Shown in pieces: positions 29,052 to 42,093 of a DNA stretch of 64,000 nt. The position numbers and the translations under genes were made by a program. The stretch is from a virus: positions 46,974-110,973 of the IMG/VR virus record IMGVR_UViG_3300027770_000039; one strand, 5' to 3'. Position 1 is the stretch's first letter, and each line of letters begins with the position of its first letter. Under the pieces are notes generated by a model that had not been told where the DNA came from, did no database searches, and saw nothing but the letters and a program-made list of their open reading frames with translations.

Positions 29052-29345
29052 AATTAAATTATAGCATTATTAATTTTAAGATCTTAGATATATAATCTTA
29101 GTCGACTAGTATTTTAGATTTCATAAAATGTTAATATATTTTTAATTTGTATGATACACCCCTGCGAGATGTCCGATATGCCCCATTAGTGCGACCATAT
29201 GTGATGTAACTCATATGGTTTTAGCAAAGTTTTTTTTAATTTGTCCGACATGTCCGATTTGTGAGTGGCAAATTGTCAGTCCCCCCTGTTAGGATTATAG
29301 TATAAAGAAAGTAAGAAACTCTTACTAAAGAAAGGCGGTAATCTA

Positions 29346-31973
29346 ATGAACGATTATCTAGACTATATGGACGAAATCTACGAGGAACTCGTAGAGGAAT
29401 TCGGACACGAAATTGAGTCCGTGTGTGAGCATAATCACACTAACGCCTAACGGCGTGTCGCTTGATAATGTCAGTCTAATCTGATAGTCTTGCGACATAC
29501 AAATTAAATAAAGAATTAGAGCGTGAGCCTAGCAAATAATCCGAAAGGTGAGCCTAGCAAATAACCGCTCAATAACCAACTAACAACTAACGAAAAGGAT
29601 AGAAAATAAAATGACAATAACATACTCAATATGGGACGGCGCTCAACTACTAGGCGTTGATTTCAAGGCTACTAGCGCCGATGAAATGAATAAGGTCGTA
29701 GCAGACCTACAAAAAGTTTCTAAAAATGTTGTAGCACATATGCGAAAGGTGGAAATGTAATGATGACTAAATGGGATACTATTCAGGCAGATGTAAGCGA
29801 TGCTTATGCTTATCTTGATGAAGAAGAAGCCTATAATAAGGCACTAGAAGAAGGCTTAGTAATAGGCTCTACCGAATATGACGAAGATGAATTATCTAAA
29901 TCATTAACATTAGATTGGGAGGCATACGAATAATGAACTTAGAATTGTTATTAGATAGCGAATACTTTTCGCTATACATTAACGGGCTTTGGCCTAATGG
30001 TGTCGGTATAGATATCCCGACATGGCTACTAGTTGGCTCTATTGCTTTTGTTTATTCTATCGTATTACTTAGAAGAGATAAATGAAATCACAATTAGAGA
30101 AAGAAATCGAAATAAAAGAAAGTTTCGACCAGATGTTAGATGATAGTTATCCCGATGTAAAAATCGGATACTCAACATTTACCGCCTCCGAAATACTTTT
30201 TAATTGCGACCCTATCGCTTACCAAATGGGATTAGTAGAGCATGAAGATTATTTAGCAGAAATGGAAAATGAATAATGGAAAACGGCGCAGATAAGTTAG
30301 CTAACCAATTTAAAAATTCGGTTGAGTTAGATCACCTAACCGAAATACAATTAAAAATGGTTGAAGAAATTTTACTAAATAAATTTGGTAAAAAAATAAA
30401 ATAAATAACGGCGTGTCGGCTTGACAAAATCGGAAGCGCCCACAAAAGCTGTGGGGGCATTTTGTGATTTAAGACACACTATAAAAAAACCCCGAATCCT
30501 GCGGCGTGTCGATTTGACAGACAATTCGGACATTTAGGTGTGATTAACAACACACTGCTTGAGCGTCTCATTATTTGGAATTACTGGAAAGTAACATGAA
30601 ATTGTCGGTGGCTTCCGCTATAATTGCGGTATAACGAAAGGAAGTGGCTAACAATGGCTAACTTATACACAATAGAAAACTTGCTAATTGGCAAGACTTA
30701 CAAATCAACAACTTTGCGTGGAGAAATTATCTCAGCAGAGAAATCTCCTCACCCAATTTGGTATGGTGATAATACCGAAGCCTATTTGGTAGAAATTAAC
30801 GCTGGAACTTTCCGCAATAAATTCCGCACAATAGCGGTGAAAGTTGGTGAGTAATAATGGGATACATTGAAATTTTCACCATGAATTCTGAGGGTGCTGG
30901 GTGGCTTGACCTCTCAGATATTCCCGCCGAAACTTTATTAGAATTGGAAATCGGATTATTTCAGGAAGGTGCGCTCTAGGGCGTGTCTATCCCGAAATTG
31001 TCGGTGGCTTAGGCTATAATTACATTAACAACAACGAAAGGAAAACTAAAGTGGGAAATATACTAGAAATACTTGCCGTATCTTGTGATGAGTGTGGCGG
31101 TGCTGGCTTCGTATTTTGGGGCGATGAAAACAATTACGATGTAGAGAGTTGCGATTGCGCTCTAGAAATGTGGGGTATCTAATGTATAGACTAGATACTT
31201 ACTATGATGGCGAATTAGAATATACACACAAATTCGCTGACGCATTACAAGCATTTGAGGCTTTTGCAAAATGTTATGATGTCGGATTTGCTAAAGAATT
31301 CGCAACATATAATTTATCTTTGCCAACGGGCAAAATGTATACTAAAAACTTTAATCGGATTGGATTGGTGTCGCAGAAATGATGACCCGAAAAGATTATA
31401 TTGCTACTGCTGAAATATTAAAATATATTAGCAATAAAACTCACCCTGCTGTTTTTTCTAAAACCGTTCATGACTTTGCGGAGATGTTTGCAAAAGATAA
31501 TGAGCGATTTGATGTAACAAAATTTCATGAAGCGAGTGGGTATCGTGTTCCTAACTTCTCTTCAAAATAAAGTAAAACGAATTCAGGAATTGCGCCGTAG
31601 TAATGCGGCGCAACCTGTTCGCAATAAAAAAAAATACACACGCAAAATAAAACATAAAAAATCTGATCTAATTTAATTGTGGATAGCTAACAACGCGGTC
31701 GGGCGTGTCGCGCCCACAAGGGTGCGGGGTCGGGCGTGTCCTTAAGAGTGTGATTAAAAACACCCTGAAAGCTGGGGTGTTTTGTAATAAATGTCAGTCA
31801 ACCCTGATATACTATCAACTCAAACAACGAAAGGTCAACTCATGAATGATATTAACTCATGCTACTGTACTAACTATTCTATTTGCACAATTTGTGTAAT
31901 GGGATATTACCGTGATGAAACATTCGACTATATGGAAACACGTATGGCCGATGCGGAAATGGGGGATTTATAA
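29346..31973 (+). CDS. Array of small early-type ORFs (29346-29450, 29611-29760, 29760-29933, 29933-30085, 30082-30276, 30654-30854, 31051-31182, 31182-31382, 31379-31570, 31842-31973)
   Basis: Each follows an RBS or couples via TAATG/ATGA. Many are acidic; 31051 has CxxCxGxG. Confidence 0.65.
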
Positions 31974-32002
31974 TGTCGGACCCAACTGTTATAATTACTC
32001 CC

Positions 32003-32722
32003 ATGAAATTAAAAAGATCTAATGATCGCAAAGTCGCTAACCTTGTTACAAAGAATGGCAAGCAAGCAGCAATTGCTAATACTTTTGGCCTGCCTGCAGG
32101 TAAGTCATACTCATGCCCTGGCGCAACTACTATTTGTGAGACTGTTTGCTATGCGGGAAAATTAGAAAAACTTTATAAGGCTGTTAAGGCTAATCTGCTG
32201 CACAATTGGGAATTGTTACGCAATGCGGATAATGACACAATGGTGCGTTTATTGGATGAGATGATCATAGAATTTGTTGCCGATTGTGATAAGAAGAATG
32301 CGCCTAAGTTATTCCGTATCCACTGGGATGGCGATTTTTTTAATGATACTTATACCTATGCCTGGAAGACTATTATCGAAAAGCATTCCGATATTCAATT
32401 TTGGGTGTACACGCGGGTAAAAGACGCAGCGCTTATTCTAAAAGATATATCTAATCTATCTTTATATTATTCTACGGATGATGATAATAAAGAGATCGGC
32501 CATGAACTAAAAGTAAATGAAGGAATTCGCCTTGCTTACTTAGGAAAGACTTTTGCGCTTACCGAAAGTACAATGAAAGAATTGACGGGTAAGCCTGGCG
32601 CTAAATGTCCTGAGAATATGAAAAGTATTCCGCTTATCTCAAGCGCAGGCAGTGCGTGTGTATCATGCGGCTTATGTGTTTATGGTAAAGCAGATATTAG
32701 ATTTAGTGCTAGTAAAAAATAA
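32003..32722 (+). CDS. GP88-family protein (radical-SAM-like Cys motif)
   Basis: FGLPAG..SCPGAT..C...CYA, FRIHWDGDF, FWVYTR; leaderless start 7 nt after TATAAT. Confidence 0.75.
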   Translation: MKLKRSNDRKVANLVTKNGKQAAIANTFGLPAGKSYSCPGATTICETVCYAGKLEKLYKAVKANLLHNWELLRNADNDTMVRLLDEMIIEFVADCDKKNAPKLFRIHWDGDFFNDTYTYAWKTIIEKHSDIQFWVYTRVKDAALILKDISNLSLYYSTDDDNKEIGHELKVNEGIRLAYLGKTFALTESTMKELTGKPGAKCPENMKSIPLISSAGSACVSCGLCVYGKADIRFSASKK

Positions 32723-33016
32723 ACAGAAAAGGTATAATATACTATGGAATTAATTGGAGCGCTAATTGGATTCTTTTTTGTTTTGTTTTTAATTTTTCCC
32801 CCTTTAATTTTTTTATTTGTTTTATTATATACAAAACCTGATATAGATAACAACGGGCTTAGCGGGGAACAATAGCGCCGAAGCTGCGCCCACAAGGGTA
32901 CGGGGTCGGGCGTGTCGTTACGGGTGTGATGTAAAACACCCCGAAACCCTACAGATATGTAAAGAATTGTCGGTGTATTGTGGTAAAATACTCTTATCCA
33001 ACAACGAAAGGCTCTA

Positions 33017-34806
33017 ATGAAAACACTAGAACACTCTCTTAGATTTATTACAGAGTTAGATGAAACTAATCCAACCGCACAACGATTACTAGCATTAGAT
33101 ACAACTACGCAGGCACTATTATTAGAAGCCATGCTACACAATTTACTTGTTCCTGATATTATGCCACTTATAGATAATCTAAACTCAGGCAATTCTTACG
33201 CAACACTAAAGGTTGTGAAATAATGTTAGCAACTGCCATCGGAATACTTGACGCAACCAAAGATAGTATTTTTGACGATGAAATTATGGGATTAGCAGGC
33301 GAACTCCATGAACGCAGAAATGAACTATCAGATGAAACTTTTGCTAAGTATTTATTTATGTATTCCACAGCCCTATCTAGCAAAGTAGCCGACCTAGTAA
33401 CTAAGGTCTGCCTAAGCAAAGAGGAAATGTCGGTGCTATGCGCTACAATAGACGAAATGGACAACCTATCAGAAACTATACTAGAAGAGGATAAATAAAT
33501 GGGAAGCATAACAGCACTAGGAATACAGGATACAGTTTTGGATTTAGAAACACAATTACTCTATCACTTAAAGGGTAATCATTACCCTCCCGTTCCAGCT
33601 GAAATGGTAAAGCCTTGTATAGATGCCATTGACGCATACTACGATAATGATTTTGATCGAGAGATAGATATGCCTAAAGTAAATGATTTTCAGATTACCT
33701 ATAAGGGAAGCCTTACCGCACCAGCGTGGGCTATCGTAGAGCAACACCACCTAGAGTTTTGGCTGCCTGAATGTGATTAACCTCACACAATAACTTTCTC
33801 AAATAATGAGATGCGGATACTAAATGTCGGTGGTGTCCGCTATAATACTACTAACAACAAACGAAAGGAAACAAATGACCAACTCAACACTAGAGGTCGG
33901 ACAGACCTACACAACTACAACCAGTAATGTTGTAGGTATTATCAAAGCAATAGACAACCACCCAAGCGGTGTAAGTCGTATCTTGCTTGATGTAAATGGC
34001 AAAGAGCGTTGGACAAGTCTAACTAACTAAGCGTAAGGCGGATACCGCTTGTCGGTGGTATCCGCTATAATAAACCCACCTAACGAAAGGAAACACAAAT
34101 GGCAAGAGGCAAAGCAATACAGGTAAAAATACCTACTGCTAAGGTTATCAAAGCCTTAGAAACAAGATTAGCCAAACTAGAGGCTGATTACACAAAGCAA
34201 GATGAAAATGAAGCAAAGTTCCAAAAGAAATTGGAAGCATGGAAAAAAGATATTGGGAAGTGGGCTATTGCTAATTTCTCAAAGGCGCAAGACCTACGCA
34301 CCAACTATCGCCAATGGAACAAAACTCTCAATGTTGATTTTGATATTGTAGTAAGCGAAAAGGATTTTCCTGCTGAACCAGTAAAGGACTACGAGCAAAT
34401 CCATCAGCACTCTTATCGTGAGATGAAAGACGAAATGGAAAATGCTATCCGTATTCTTAAAATGACCGATGAGGAAACAGTTAGCGCAAGCACCTATAAC
34501 GCTATTGCTCGTTATCTCTAAATAACAGATGGGGGCTAGACAAAATCTAGCCCCCTATGTTATACTTTTTATCCCTACTAACAAAGGAACAAAATGCGAT
34601 ATAGATTAGAAATCTATGATGCTAATAAATCTCACGACATTTCCATACCACTTGCTGAAAGTATCAACTATCCAAAAATTGCTAACATAGTTAAGCAAAA
34701 TATAAAAAACTTTCAGGGTGATGTAAAAGCATATGTATTTGATGTAACTAATAATAAAAAGATCACAGCGGCGTATTTCCCAGAAGAAATTCATTCACTA
34801 ATCTAA
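33017..34806 (+). CDS. Small early ORFs (33017-33223, 33223-33498, 33499-33780, 33875-34030, 34099-34521, 34594-34806)
   Basis: ORF track plus AAAGG-type RBSs and stop/start coupling. Confidence 0.7.
34531..34555 (+). terminator. Hairpin GGGGGCTAGA-CAAAA-TCTAGCCCCC
   Basis: Perfect inverted repeat after the stop at 34521. Confidence 0.6.
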
Positions 34807-34810
34807 AGCT

Positions 34811-34840
34811 TGGGGCGGGTTTTTATGTTTTCCCGCCCCA
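34811..34840 (+). terminator. Hairpin TGGGGCGGG...CCCGCCCCA
   Basis: Inverted repeat after the stop at 34806. Confidence 0.6.
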
Positions 34841-34982
34841 TCTTCCCATGCGCCCAACCTTGGGGACTTATCCACAGCCTTACGGAAATCTGTGGAAAAC
34901 CCCTGAAACCTGATGTAAAATAAGATAGACAATGTCAGTGCCAACTGTTATAATAAACCTAACAAACAAACGAAAGGATAAA

Positions 34983-35990
34983 ATGGCTCATAATCTAGAA
35001 GTGCAAGATGGTGAAGTAGCATTTGCGTTACGTGGCGCACCTGCTTGGCACAATCTTGCAAATCGCATTTTCGCTCAAGATGAAAATGTAACTACCGCAA
35101 CAATGCTTGAAGAAGCAAAGTTAAATAACTGGAATGTTCGCTTGTCGGACGTTGCAGATCACATCCCTAACACATGGAGAAATACATCAGATAATTTCTA
35201 TGTGATTCGTGATAACCCATTTGATCAAGGCACTGATGTTCTATCAGTTGTTGGAAAGCGATACAAGACTGTTCAGAATGAAGAGTTATTTCAATTCGCC
35301 GACAACGTTTTAGACAATGGCGATGCAAAATGGGAATCTGCTGGCTCAATTAAAAAGGGCAAAGTTGTATTCGGCTCATTGGATATTCCTCGTGAAATCG
35401 TATTAGACCCACAAGGTGTTAACGATAGAACTAAGTTATATTTAATCGTATGGACATCACACGACGGCTCAGTTGCCGTTCAAGCAGCAATCACACCTGT
35501 TCGTGTTGTCTGCCAAAATACTCTTAACCTTGCAATGAAGGGCGCTAAGCAATCTTTCAAGATTCGCCACACACAAACTGCTGAAGGCAGAATTGTGCAA
35601 GCCCGTCAAGCATTGGGATTAACATTTGCGTATGCAGATGAATTTCAAAAGCAAGCACAAGAGTTATTTACTCAATCAGTTACCGATAAGCAATTCTCGG
35701 ATTTGATTCGCAATCTATACCCAAAGCCTGAGTCAGATGTTAAAGGCGCATTGAAGAAGTGGGAGAATAAGGTTGTTCTAATTGATGACCTTTATCATAA
35801 CTCACCAACTAATTCTACAATCAAGGGAACTGCTTGGGGTGCATTTAATGCACTAACTGAGCGTTTAGATTATTACCGCACATCACGCACTGGTAATACT
35901 GAATCGCTAAATGCTGGCGCAAGTGGGTTCGACCCAATTTTAACTGCAGAGAAAAATAAAATTCTCAAAGCAGTTAAAGCCTTAGCCTAA
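34983..35990 (+). CDS. DUF932 family protein
   Basis: AWHNL, VGKRY..VQNEE.F, TSHDGS, TPVRVVCQNTL, IRHT, GTAWGAFNALTE. Confidence 0.85.
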   Translation: MAHNLEVQDGEVAFALRGAPAWHNLANRIFAQDENVTTATMLEEAKLNNWNVRLSDVADHIPNTWRNTSDNFYVIRDNPFDQGTDVLSVVGKRYKTVQNEELFQFADNVLDNGDAKWESAGSIKKGKVVFGSLDIPREIVLDPQGVNDRTKLYLIVWTSHDGSVAVQAAITPVRVVCQNTLNLAMKGAKQSFKIRHTQTAEGRIVQARQALGLTFAYADEFQKQAQELFTQSVTDKQFSDLIRNLYPKPESDVKGALKKWENKVVLIDDLYHNSPTNSTIKGTAWGAFNALTERLDYYRTSRTGNTESLNAGASGFDPILTAEKNKILKAVKALA

Positions 35991-35996
35991 ATAAAT

Positions 35997-36019
35997 GGGG
36001 CCCGAAAGGGCCCCGTTTC
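35997..36019 (+). terminator. GGGGCCC-GAAA-GGGCCCC hairpin
   Basis: GNRA hairpin plus T tail after the DUF932 stop. Confidence 0.65.
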
Positions 36020-36021
36020 TT

Positions 36022-36095
36022 GGTCCATTAGCTCAGCTGGTTAGAGCGCTACCCTGTCACGGTAGAGGCCGACGGTTCAAGTCCGTTATGGATCG
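36022..36095 (+). tRNA. tRNA-Asp (GTC)
   Basis: Acceptor GGTCCAT/ATGGATC, anticodon arm CTACC-CTGTCAC-GGTAG, TTCAAGT T-loop. Confidence 0.9.
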
Positions 36096-36099
36096 CAAA

Positions 36100-36173
36100 G
36101 TGCCATTAGCTTAGTTGGTTAAAGCCCCGAACTCATAATTCGGTAATCGTAGGTTCAAGTCCTACATGGCACA
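36100..36173 (+). tRNA. tRNA-CAT (Ile2 or elongator Met)
   Basis: Acceptor GTGCCAT/ATGGCAC; CCGAA-CTCATAA-TTCGG; C4:G69 and C5:G68 as in Ile2. Confidence 0.85.
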
Positions 36174-36296
36174 CAAGCTGCGCCCAACCTTAGAGGCTCG
36201 ATCAACGCTTTACGGGTGTTATATAAAATCCCCCAAAACCTATTGCAAATGTCAGTAGCCTCTGCTACAATTACGACATTCAACGAAAGGAATAAT

Positions 36297-37070
36297 ATGC
36301 CAAATTGGGTATATAACACATTAACGATACAAGGTCCAAAGTCTGAAATTGATTCTATTAAGGATAGACTTAATAAGCCGTTTACTTTAGCACAAGAGAA
36401 TCATGGTATGGGAGATATTACTCCTAATGGTTTCCCCACCAAAATTAAAGAGGTTACTTATAGTAATCCTGTTTTTGCTTTCTTTAATATCCACTCATAT
36501 AAAGATGAAGGTATTACTGATGAAGAGTATGCCTGCCAGCCTGACCGTTCAGGTCTTGACTTAAATGACCCTGATTGGTTCCGCAAATCTGTTGAGTTTG
36601 CTAAGACTCAGAAAGATTGGTATTCATGGAATCAATCTAACTGGGGAACTAAATGGGATGTAGCCGTATCAGATGATGACAAATATCCTGAAACCGAATT
36701 GCTTGAACACAAGTCTGAAGGTGATGATAACTGGCTTCTATATAAATACGAGACTGCTTGGTCACCTGCTGTAACTATCTTAACTAAACTATCTAATCTT
36801 GTTCCGAACTCCCTTCTCACATTAGAGTTTGAGGAAGAGACAGGCTGGGGTGGGGAATATGAGATTGTTCGTGGCGAAGTAAAAGAATTGGCAGAATGGG
36901 ATAACCGTTGCTATGCTTGCCAATCTTATGACACATTAAGTTATTGTGAAAATGACTGTGGCGAATTCTGTTCATCTTGTAATCAAGGCTCATGGCAGGA
37001 TGCAGAGGCAATGGAAAAATGTCAGACCCACATGGTACTATTAACCACTACCGAAACGAAAGGAAACTAA
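36297..37070 (+). CDS. DUF1281/YubB ferredoxin-like domain protein
   Basis: MPNWVYN, NWGTKWD, ETAWSP; C-terminal Cys cluster. Confidence 0.75.
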   Translation: MPNWVYNTLTIQGPKSEIDSIKDRLNKPFTLAQENHGMGDITPNGFPTKIKEVTYSNPVFAFFNIHSYKDEGITDEEYACQPDRSGLDLNDPDWFRKSVEFAKTQKDWYSWNQSNWGTKWDVAVSDDDKYPETELLEHKSEGDDNWLLYKYETAWSPAVTILTKLSNLVPNSLLTLEFEEETGWGGEYEIVRGEVKELAEWDNRCYACQSYDTLSYCENDCGEFCSSCNQGSWQDAEAMEKCQTHMVLLTTTETKGN

Positions 37071-37071
37071 C

Positions 37072-38518
37072 ATGGAAGACACATACGGAGCAACAGTAAC
37101 ACCTGCTGTACCTGCTACATACAATCCTAGTGCACTTGTGCAATACAAGTTTATTGAAGGAGAAAATGTAACATATCCAATTGCTAAAGTTACAGACTTA
37201 GAATGGGACCTAGAACAAGGTCGACGTTCTCGTGATAACTTTAACGAACTTAAAGGTACAGTTAATGAATTAGAAGAACTTCTAGTTGAACTGTATAATC
37301 CTAATTATACAAAAGAAGAAGCGCTGCAACAAATTGCAGAACTATTTGGATTTGAACTATCAAAGACAGTTACCATAACTGGAACTATTAACTTTGAAGT
37401 AATAATGCAAGTACCACTTGATGAGGTTGAAGATTTTGATGCTCATTACAAACTTGGCGATGAACTTTCTTTAACATCTTACAATGGCGATGTTGAAGTT
37501 AATGATTGGTCAATCGAAAGCACAGATGTGGATTGGAACTAATGTACTTTGAACTTACCGCACCCGATAGGCTGTCAATGGAGATGGCCTATTGGGATGC
37601 ACAAATAATCGGACTAGACCCAACTGCAATGTCACCGTTGACTTTCAATGTTGGAACTGGTAGTATTGAGAAAGTAAGTAAGATTCGTGACAAGTATAAT
37701 TTAACTGAAAGTTATACCTCAGACTACGAACCTACTGGATACACTAGGAGATAATATGTCAGATTACAAAGATGGTTTTGACGACGGGTATAAATTTGCT
37801 CGTGAAGAGATTATCGAAAAGCTATCAGAGATTGATATTAATGATATTGATTCCTGGATTTTAGATCGTCTAGCAGAAATGATGGAAGGTAATCAACTGT
37901 GATGGCTGAAGATGTATCCCCAGTTTATTATTGCGATAGCTGCAGCGTAGCCCGTGCATCATATCTAATTAAACTATTAGATGGTGAACTGGCATTTTGC
38001 ACACATCATTATAATAAATCTAAAAAGGCCCTTGACGAAAAGGCCTATGAAGTGGTAGAATTAAATAAAACGGAAGAGTCACCTAAACTAAAAGAAATGG
38101 CGGAATAGCAATGGGAGATAGAGCAAACTTTGGATTCGTTCAACCGAACGGACAAACAATTGTATTATACGGTCACTGGGCAGGACATCAAATGCTAGGT
38201 AAATTAGCGGACGCTGTCATTGCTGCGAGACCACGCTGGAATGATTCATCATATGCAACACGTATCGCTATTAGCAATATCATTGCTGATCAGTGGAATA
38301 TGGAAACTGGATGGGGCCTATACGTAAATGAGATTGGCGACAATGAACATAAGATTGCCATCATTGATTGGGACCAGCAAACATTCAGTCTTCATGAGCA
38401 TACGGATGCACGAGATCCTTTAAACAAAGTCCGTGGCATGAATAACAAAGCGCTCTTCACAATGGACCTAACTTCATTCTGTGAGAAGTATGCATTGGAA
38501 AGATTACTAGTAGTTTAA
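37072..38518 (+). CDS. Operon of hypothetical proteins (37072-37542, 37542-37754, ~37756-37902, 37899-38108, 38111-38518)
   Basis: Tightly coupled ORFs; 37899 has CxxC..FCxHH. Confidence 0.65.
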
Positions 38519-38527
38519 ATTTAGAAG

Positions 38528-38643
38528 AACGAATGGTGCATCTCCTTTAGATGCTAAGTAAGGCAGGCTTTCCTTTCGTTGAGGTCCTAGCAGCCATTCA
38601 TCCTAAACCCCTATGACCCTTCTGGCATGGGGGTTTAGCTTTG
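38528..38643 (+). ncRNA. Candidate structured sRNA with anti-RBS loops, ending in a terminator
   Basis: Closing stem GAATGG/CCATTC; hairpin loops CCTTT and CCTTTCGTT; terminator CTAAACCCC/GGGGTTTAG. Confidence 0.6.
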
Positions 38644-38809
38644 CGCTCACGGGTGAGGGTAGCATATGCTCTTTACGGAAGTCAAATTTATTTTCCTGAA
38701 ATCCTAGCATATGGACAAAGCTGGGCTCATGTGGTGTGAATCACACGGATATAGCCTATACAATGTCAGTGGTATGTTATATAATTAAGGTCCTAGCGAA
38801 AGGAAATAT

Positions 38810-40038
38810 ATGTCATTCTTGGAGAATGAAAACCAAATGGTGATAGACGCAGAATATTCTTATATTGGAGAACAACTGGTCGAAGACTGGACTAACTCTA
38901 ATTTAGATGAAGGTCAACTATTTGCAGATTTTAGATTTGCTGAAATGTGTGAGAGTAATTATCTAAAGGGTAGATTTAATCAGTTTTATGATTTAAAACC
39001 CGAAGACCAATACTATGTAGAATGGGATGAGGAAGCATAATGTTAGGTTATACATATAAAGATATACAAGCATTTGGTAATAGTCTTACTTGGGCTATTG
39101 ATACCGCCAAATCTCAGGGTGAAGAACAACAGTATAAACAATTATTAATTGTATGGGATTTTTTTGAAGGTCTACTAGCAGAAGGGTATATAGATGAGAA
39201 CACATACTACGGATAAGTTAATAGAATATATGAATATTCATTTAATTAGTCTTAATCAAGACTTAGATAAGGATTTGAATGTTGAATCTAAGATAAATAT
39301 CCAAGGACAAATTATGGCTATAGAACATCTATTGGAGGTATATAATGAGTTATAAGGATACTCTATTGGAACCCCGCCTTCAAAAACTGGTGGACCTGGG
39401 GGAATCAGGCACTGACATTCTGCACGGGGAATTAAAGAACCTTATGCTGGAAGCAGAGACTCAGCTTGATTATGCTACCAAAGCTGAGGAAGAATCAGAG
39501 GAAGCAATGGACTCTATGGAAAGAAGGTATTGGGAAGGCCAACTAGAGGCATTGACAGAATGCTATATATTGACGTATAATTTAACCTTCGCCATAAATG
39601 AAAGGATTATATCCCGTGGATGACATTCAGTATGACAGAGGACAAAAAATTAAAATGCAGTTGGACCAAATGGTCAATACTTTAAATGGCATGGATGTTT
39701 CATTGTCACTAGTATGGCTTTGGACATGGGATTTAATTAGAGATAAATATGATCAATACTCTAAGGACGATCTTTATAGCGATTTAACAATTACTGATGG
39801 GACAACCCTTGATACTATCTGGGATAAATTATGGTCTCAGGTTCCCGCCTCATTTACTCTGGAGTATGGCGCAGAGTACATAGATGAGGCTATAACAGAC
39901 TGGATGTTAGACAACGGCTTCCTTACTGTGCTAGATGATGACGGCTGGCTGAATGACGATGAAGACATAGTAGATCTAACTGCAGAGGAAGAGACAGCAA
40001 TGATTGAAGGATTAGTTAATCTAAACGAGATCCCATAA
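38810..40038 (+). CDS. Acidic small ORFs (38810-39040, ~39039-39218, ~39188-39344, 39345-39623, ~39616-40038)
   Basis: Coupled ORFs downstream of the promoter at 38764. Confidence 0.6.
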
Positions 40039-41835: not shown

Positions 41836-42022
41836 TGTTCCCGCCTTTCAACAATTATGAGTGCATCCACAATCTGGACACTCTCCCCCTGGAGCAGCAT
41901 TACAATCATCGCACCAGTCTGGTGGATTTTGCTTATATCCTGGTATCTTTATTTCAGTCATATAATATATTATACTATATCTATATTATTTTAGTCAACT
42001 ACTTTATATGTACTAAATATTG

Positions 42023-42093
42023 CTTCAGGTGTAGGAATCGGACCTACATTATCAGTTTCGGAAACTGCTCTACGACCATTATAGGAACCTGAA
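42023..42093 (-). tRNA. tRNA-Arg (CCG)
   Basis: Acceptor TTCAGGT/ACCTGAA; anticodon loop TTCCGAA; T-arm GTAGG-TCCGATT-CCTAC (atypical T-loop). Confidence 0.75.

Follow-up and report, generated by a model that had tools for sequence, protein, structure and literature searches.

A conserved structured RNA of lake phages whose loop complements a tag in early-gene leaders: a candidate antisense regulator of early translation

Does the spacer behind an early phage operon encode an RNA, and could such an RNA act on the early genes around it? The window (the whole 64,000-nt stretch analysed) is part of a virus record of 110,973 bp with 35% G+C and direct terminal repeats. In it, a spacer of 291 bp separates the stop codon (38516-38518) of a 135-aa gene (38111-38518, phrog_31860) from gene 38810, and the element studied here lies in the first part of this spacer. 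A sequence-only reading had proposed that this stretch is free of open reading frames, folds into a three-way junction followed by a terminator and presents the reverse complement of a ribosome-binding site shared by the early genes, whose translation it could switch off. Indeed, the stretch is ORF-free, and just a 6-codon ORF lies behind the motif on the minus strand, which leaves no minus-strand gene that would use it as a ribosome-binding site. The element is explained by no ORF, tRNA or Rfam family. ARAGORN and Rfam gave no tRNA or tmRNA at the element, and Rfam searches at the gathering threshold and at E up to 10, run on the window, five relatives and a Streptomyces-phage element described below, found only tRNAs. 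The best chance match was rnk_pseudo (16 bits against a gathering score of 55), with no riboswitch or cis-regulator family among the matches. A blastn comparison of positions 37500-39500 with cultured phages gave no match.

The three-way junction (38531-38599) and the terminator hairpin behind it form the minimum-free-energy fold at -42.7 kcal/mol (z = -3.9, with equally good folding in one of 200 shuffles), and this agrees with the closing stem, two hairpins and terminator first read from the letters. All parts lie on the + strand. The closing stem P1 pairs GAATGGT (38531-38537), whose GGT is invariant in the family, with GCCATTC (38593-38599), at which GCAGCC is invariant, and it shows compensatory changes at four of its seven pairs. 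P2 (GCATCT-CCTTT-AGATGC, 38538-38554) is a shortened version of the long P2 of most relatives, with a stem base that covaries (GC/CG/AU) and an unconserved loop. The proposal that this first hairpin offers a second anti-Shine-Dalgarno sequence, TCTCCTTT, was not supported, as the loop reads CCATA, CCTCT, ACTCT, ACTCA or CTTCT in the nearest relatives and most others have a long, different P2. P2 is followed by J2/3 (TAAGTAAG, 38555-38562), a conserved single-stranded junction of 8 nt with TAA-TAA in every copy. P3 (GCAGG ... CCTAGC, 38563-38591) has a large loop and an inner stem that covaries, for instance as AGG/CCT, ATCGG/CCGAT and AGAGTTC/GAACCTCT. Here lies a lineage-specific stretch of 13 nt, TTTCCTTTCGTTG (38569-38581), the complement of the early-leader sequence CAACGAAAGGAAA, and within it the family octamer CTTTCGTT (38573-38580), the proposed seed, which includes a UUCG turn of the YUNR type. 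The element closes with an intrinsic terminator (38603-38643), composed of a G+C-rich hairpin of 13-15 bp (38603-38638) and then TTTAGCTTTG, in which the T-run is interrupted. Exposure of the anti-leader stretch by the second hairpin, as claimed before, is borne out for UCGUU (predicted unpaired probability in the window 0.91-0.99) and not for the CCUU on its 5' side (0.18-0.34). This CCUU is placed in a weak predicted 4-bp helix with GAGG, leaving half of the 13-mer helical in the window.

Related loci were gathered from lake metagenome viruses via flanking proteins, and in nearly all of these 137 loci the element comes directly after the 135-aa gene; in relatives, this gene is always found directly upstream of the RNA. 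At least 98 distinct elements were obtained from related lake-phage contigs. A first alignment of 59 copies gave a consensus junction with compensatory changes at 9 of 17 pairs, and such changes are present in all three stems. A covariance model, R1, recovered 75 further copies among 100 pattern matches. In the alignment of these 75 copies, pairing holds for 95% of cells (78% in shuffles), and the covariation score is 0.439 against 0.13, a value attained by none of 500 shuffles, slid controls giving at most 0.074. The 75-copy alignment was fitted to the model and so favours the structure, while the 59-copy alignment was not so fitted. Strong covariation is seen in both, as expected if the fold across homologous contigs is that of a conserved structured RNA. 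The invariant positions are GGUG, the C..CU/AG of P2, UAA-UAA-GC, CUUUCGUU in the P3 loop and GCAGCC. The octamer CUUUCGUU is shared by 97 of the 98 distinct elements, in searches that largely required it, and its mean predicted unpaired probability is 0.66, compared with 0.42 for the whole RNA. Within the 111-kb genome, the window element is the sole match of R1 (68.2 bits, E 2.4e-14), a model built with the same sequence included. Beyond the phages, a pattern scan of 185,579 species genomes, with 100 of the 120 resulting rows scored with R1, yielded chance matches except for a misbinned phage contig (L218); a match in Mobiluncus (26.5 bits) was rejected, being within a coding sequence and lacking GCAGCC. 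The family is absent from Rfam 15, and a literature search found no paper describing the RNA. From these results, the element is almost certainly a conserved small RNA gene.

Covariation also reaches into the junction. The last base of P2 (38554) and the fourth base of J2/3 (38558) co-vary, as C..G in 66 distinct elements, U..A in 33, U..C in 2 and A..A in 1, which hints at tertiary or alternative pairing within the junction. Two other ideas were abandoned. A pseudoknot between J2/3 (UAAGUAAA) and UUUACUUA of the P3 loop fails, since the G-to-A change in J2/3 goes without any matching change in the loop, and an apparent mimicry of the 16S 3' domain (GGUGCGGCU, AAGUCGU) involves letters that fall in covarying stems and are unconserved.

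What, then, does the P3 loop match? On the + strand between 30.6 and 39.6 kb, AACGAAAGGA is found in 8 exact (30633-37055) and 4 one-mismatch copies, each 5-9 nt before a start codon, and its sole minus-strand copy is the element itself. These 13 matches compare with 4.4 expected, and none of 100 shuffles gets that many. The exact 10-mer is limited, in the genome, to 8 early ribosome sites and the antisense copy in the RNA. The predicted targets, all on the + strand, are the tags of genes 30654 (30633-30642), 31051 (31033-31042), 33875 (33860-33869), 34099 (34082-34091), 34983 (34969-34978), 36297 (36282-36291, the best predicted duplex) and 37072 (37055-37064), together with the leader of gene 38810 (AAGGTCCTAGCGAAAGGAAAT, 38788-38808), which holds a one-mismatch tag and gives the second-best predicted duplex. 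The complementarity of 38569-38581 to early ribosome-binding sites, 13 of 13 nt for gene 31051, was confirmed as an exact match. By cofold energy, two early leaders rank top and the remaining early leaders are not separable from late ribosome sites. Besides, GGTCCTAGC of the P3 3' strand (38584-38592) recurs directly before the GAAAGG of gene 38810 (38790-38798); this repeat is also present in one relative (L015) and absent from most.

The motif does lie before early starts, as the sequence-only reading had it, and it is not a ribosome-binding site alone: it belongs to a promoter-leader cassette (29273-38808) consisting of aaTGTC(A/G)GTgg, 9 nt, TATAAT, an A/C-rich leader of 8-15 nt, AACGAAAGGA, 5-9 nt and ATG. 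Since the tag follows TATAAT by 8-15 nt, it stands at the extreme 5' end of short leaders. Late genes have AAGGAG-type sites without the tag. The same region also holds ordinary TTGACA-17/18-TATAAT promoters (e.g., 39552-39581). In many relatives, the gene after the RNA, which encodes a protein starting MPNW, has the leader ATATC-AACGAAAG-GATAT (L006:3723, L007:3316, L016:3718 and others), a hairpin that would present the 8-nt tag in its loop, so that a loop-loop contact is possible.

The fixed distance between tag and -10 in every cassette could also be read at the DNA level, with AACGAAAGG as the operator of a DNA-binding protein and the RNA gene merely holding an inverted copy. This we regard as extremely improbable. 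Covarying stems enclose the loop with the inverted copy, a sign of selection on the RNA, and a DNA site would be indifferent to strand, whereas the tag is one-stranded: 101 related loci (830 kb) hold 400 copies of AACGAAAG on the strand of the RNA and 3 on the other, against about 16 expected (an enrichment of about 25-fold). The enrichment is confined to this strand and to positions before early start codons, and AACGAAAG is the word most over-represented in the leaders. It is exactly complemented by the P3 octamer, in line with the earlier claim that the loop is antisense to a ribosome-site word shared by the early genes.

How far does this match extend? Immediately 5' of the octamer, 48 of the 98 distinct elements have C, 29 have A and 21 have U, with ribosome sites staying GAAAGG; opposite the second G of GAAAGG, about half of the family offers A or U. 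A co-variation of loop and ribosome site between relatives had been named as a check on the idea; for extensions past the 8-mer it was not found, the score being 1.194 against 1.193 after permutation (P = 0.53; loops shuffled among contigs within orthologous gene groups). Hence, the match of 13 of 13 is lineage-specific, and the match at the level of the family is 8 nt.

The presence or absence of the RNA is more informative about the tag. Syntenic loci of at least 6 kb were found via a 76-aa protein, hence blindly with respect to the RNA. The 40 loci with the loop have a mean of 2.7 tags, and CGAAAGG makes up 108 of their 188 GAAAGG sites; in the 10 loci without the RNA, the mean is 0.8 and the share is 5 of 55 (Mann-Whitney P = 9e-5 and Fisher P = 4e-11, uncorrected for relatedness). 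Likewise, a complete relative of 107.7 kb without an R1 match has a single AACGAAAG, compared with 7-14 in four relatives with the RNA, and its early leaders read A(A/C)AGAAAGG (AAGAAAGG). Thus, where the RNA is missing, GAAAGG is kept while sites preceded by C drop, and only the AAC tag is lost. The suggestion that the uniform leader motif acts as an address tag fits this co-occurrence, RNA-less relatives lacking AAC(G) yet having GAAAGG. Two exceptional elements are also informative. In L067 (1944-2015), the P3 loop is unrelated and the anti-tag ACCCUUUCGG / CCCUUUCGG / ACCCUUUC(GG) is found in the apical loop of P2, in a phage whose leaders keep AACGAAAG. In L070, the scaffold is kept and P3 is cut to GCGC-UUAG-GCGC; the locus has no tag, and the 18.7-kb contig has 3.

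We give about an even chance to the following explanation, a trans-acting antisense sRNA that would mask early ribosome-binding sites by pairing with early leaders. The P3 loop CUUUCGUU of this phage-encoded sRNA (13 nt in the source phage) would pair with the AACGAAAG(GA) tag, which stands at the 5' end of short early leaders and overlaps the Shine-Dalgarno sequence GAAAGGA. Such pairing would keep 30S subunits off the early mRNAs and reduce translation of the early genes as a set. Counting against this explanation are the missing co-variation of the extensions, the helix that takes up half of the 13-mer in the window, the cofold energies, the unrelated P3 loop of the Streptomyces-phage homologues described below and the 3 tags in the contig of L070, and the co-occurrence statistics are uncorrected for relatedness. 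Accumulation of the RNA, its pairing in vivo and its effect are read here from sequence; we infer repression, rather than protection or activation, because the target of the loop overlaps the ribosome site.

The origin of the transcript seems to differ among the phages. In most relatives, an extended -10 promoter, TATG(G/A)TATAAT (TATGGTATAAT or TATGATATAAT), lies before the element, usually followed by a small 5' hairpin (ATAGGCCnnnnGCCTAT type), and a hairpin with a T-run, unrelated in sequence, lies behind it; several relatives have no terminator. On these features, the element of most relatives is a self-standing gene of about 150 nt, and the RNA would run from its own promoter to its own terminator. 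In the window and in two relatives (L002 and L003), which form a clade with a short P2, P1 starts 12 nt past the stop codon. The intervening 38519-38530 (+ strand) lacks the extended -10 promoter and 5' hairpin of most relatives, and just weak TAnnnT matches (TAGTTT, TAAATT) are present. With no evident promoter of its own, the window RNA is probably made as the 3' end of the upstream operon (36297-38518), which is the simplest explanation, unless a weak TAnnnT drives its transcription. Two studies supplied RNA-library contigs that link the 135-aa gene to the element (38282-38568 and 38415-38599); DNA carry-over is possible in them, and they are compatible with an origin as the 3' end of that operon. 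These data are contigs that give no ends, strand or usable depth, and their uncovered parts are uninformative. As the 3' end of an early operon, the RNA of the source phage would constitute a built-in negative feedback.

This arrangement also bears on a cis-acting role, in which the element would be a 3'-UTR stabiliser, or an attenuator or riboswitch-like aptamer controlling terminator read-through into gene 38810. Riboswitches are commonly laid out as a three-way junction with a terminator directly behind it, and the missing promoter and the contigs that link the element to its upstream gene speak in the same direction. We nevertheless hold this role to be quite improbable, considering that most relatives have an own promoter for the element, that the downstream gene is served by a promoter and an upstream control region of its own, that terminator sequences vary without a conserved anti-terminator pairing and are lacking in several relatives, and that no Rfam family matches.

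More distant phages were also compared. The best cultured homologues of a 335-aa early protein belong to phages of Streptomyces, Mycobacterium, Microbacterium, Arthrobacter and Gordonia (at least 558 of 639 records). As its homologues are mainly in actinobacterial phages, the host is likely an actinobacterium. The source phage is probably lytic. Streptomyces phage Jay2Jay gave one match to R1 with its copy in the other terminal repeat (26.8 bits, E 4.5e-4). This element (KM652554.1, 776-843, copy at 122869-122936; L380:2770-2837; minus strand) is unannotated, lies in the terminal repeat, and is on the same strand as, and downstream of, the homologue of the 335-aa protein. It is the best-conserved block of unannotated spacer in 83 cultured Streptomyces phages of the BE cluster, of which 11 representatives form a three-way junction with compensatory changes at 9 of 23 pairs. 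The 5' half, GGGU-CCCCUAUCAGUC...GGCGAGGGGUUAAAUA, is almost identical to that of one lake-phage subclass (z 5), and P1-P2-J2/3 agrees with the lake-phage scaffold. Unlike in lake phages, the loop of P3 reads A(A/U)GGUCGG, and an invariant tail, ACCUUUCAAU, follows P1. The BE-cluster element is a distant homologue of the lake-phage scaffold, and since the scaffold is common to both phage groups and the loop is not, the scaffold is older than the anti-leader loop. Three early leaders of Jay2Jay begin with CAUCGAAAGGG, and the match of the tail is 6 nt only (GAAAGG). A candidate common leader in this phage, TTGAAAGG, was discarded, being just the complement of the element itself and one other site. 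Upstream of the Jay2Jay element lies a TTGACA-17-TAACAT promoter.

An older scaffold leaves room for a second function. In the alternative that follows from this, the main role lies in the conserved scaffold, which would bind or titrate some phage or host factor, such as a protein, with the loop match being secondary or a by-product. The junction sequences GGUG, UAAGUAAR-GC and UAGCAGCC, together with the co-variation within J2/3, are conserved beyond the needs of a plain antisense RNA, and such over-conservation weighs against a pairing role by itself and points to a further partner. The strictness of the C..G / U..A exchange, the near letter-for-letter agreement of P1-P2-J2/3 in the BE cluster despite a different P3 loop and the constant position next to the same 135-aa gene agree with this. 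A main role of this kind nevertheless appears rather unlikely, as it leaves unexplained both the loss of the AAC tag in RNA-less relatives and the reappearance of the anti-tag in the P2 loop of L067. Nor does the neighbouring gene offer a partner: its 135-aa product, though confidently modelled (pLDDT 86), matched neither a Pfam family nor, at E up to 0.001, a PDB fold, and it was dropped as RNA-binding candidate for this reason. We consider possible, though less likely than not, a broader scheme in which an old actinophage scaffold would carry a short anti-leader strand in its P3 loop, P2 loop or 3' tail, matching an AAC address before the ribosome site of every early unit and switching a whole temporal class.

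Given a likely actinobacterial host, GAAAGGA fits the 16S 3' tail, which is CCUCCUUUCU in actinobacteria. Hence a further alternative, in which the loop mimics this 16S 3' end and pairs with GAAAGG-type Shine-Dalgarno sequences generally, those of the host included, as a shut-off factor or global modulator; its action would extend to GAAAGGAGG sites without the AAC tag. UCCUUUC is common to the loop and to the 16S tail, the lake-phage loop has nothing but a single-stranded CUUUC in common with the tail ACCUUUCAAU of the Streptomyces phages, and the host is very probably an actinobacterium. We find this distinctly unlikely all the same. The invariant part of the loop extends into GUU, which is absent in 16S and pairs with the AAC of the tag, variation in the loop falls on the bases that would face the GG of the ribosome site, and tag and RNA co-occur. 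The GUU within the invariant octamer likewise upholds the earlier statement that the loop goes beyond the 16S anti-Shine-Dalgarno sequence.

Among known systems, the c4 RNA of phages P1 and P7 (Rfam C4, RF01695) comes nearest to the proposed antisense sRNA; the loops of this small folded phage RNA block translation by pairing where ribosomes bind on a phage mRNA, a function that needs the fold presenting the complementary loops (PMC12197685). Both are folded phage RNAs with a loop complementary to a phage ribosome-binding site. However, the element has no sequence or structure match to the C4 model even at E up to 10 and is not a C4 member, and c4 acts on one operon (ant) in lysogenic immunity, whereas about 10 early units of a probably lytic phage with an actinobacterial host would be concerned here. 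In kissing-loop antisense RNAs (CopA/CopT, Sok/hok, RNA-OUT/IN), the likeness resides in the UUCG, which fits YUNR, and in the leader hairpin that shows the 8-mer in many relatives; these RNAs are cis-encoded opposite their targets, whereas the element is trans-encoded, its match is 8-13 nt long and the leader hairpin is present in some genes only. The C/U-rich hairpin loops of 6C, RsaE and RNAIII pair with Shine-Dalgarno regions independently of a chaperone, and Hfq is not known from actinobacteria. The pyrimidine-rich loop facing a Shine-Dalgarno region is common to these RNAs and the element; they are host-encoded and have other folds, and there is no Rfam match at the element.

Temporal shut-off of phage early genes is known via proteins, and phage antisense RNAs are known for single targets. 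In T4, RegB cuts GGAG and RegA binds near the AUG, and many early mRNAs are silenced together via a short motif of the ribosome-binding site. The analogy is one of logic only, as RegB and RegA are proteins and the agent proposed here is an RNA. If true, one RNA addressing about 10 transcription units by a tag fused to the ribosome-binding site would be a new regulon design and an RNA counterpart of RegA/RegB, in phages of abundant freshwater actinobacteria, and the relatives in Streptomyces phages bring the family within bench reach. New here are the variant lacking a promoter, the negative result for the loop extensions, the comparison of loci with and without the RNA, the seed moved to P2 and the homologues in Streptomyces phages.

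Two other features of the surrounding region were recorded. A tRNA-Asp and a tRNA-Met are found in tandem on the + strand within the early region, as well as a tRNA-Arg(CCG) on the minus strand (window 36022-36174 and 42022-42093). Past the terminator, positions 38644-38770 are conserved more widely than the RNA itself (blastn) and read GCGCTCA..TGAGGGTA-hairpin-TTACGG..GTCAA..TTCCTGAAAT, with the palindrome GTGTGAATCACAC (38733-38745) and next the TGTCAGTGG promoter; this segment looks like an upstream control region repeated ahead of early promoters.
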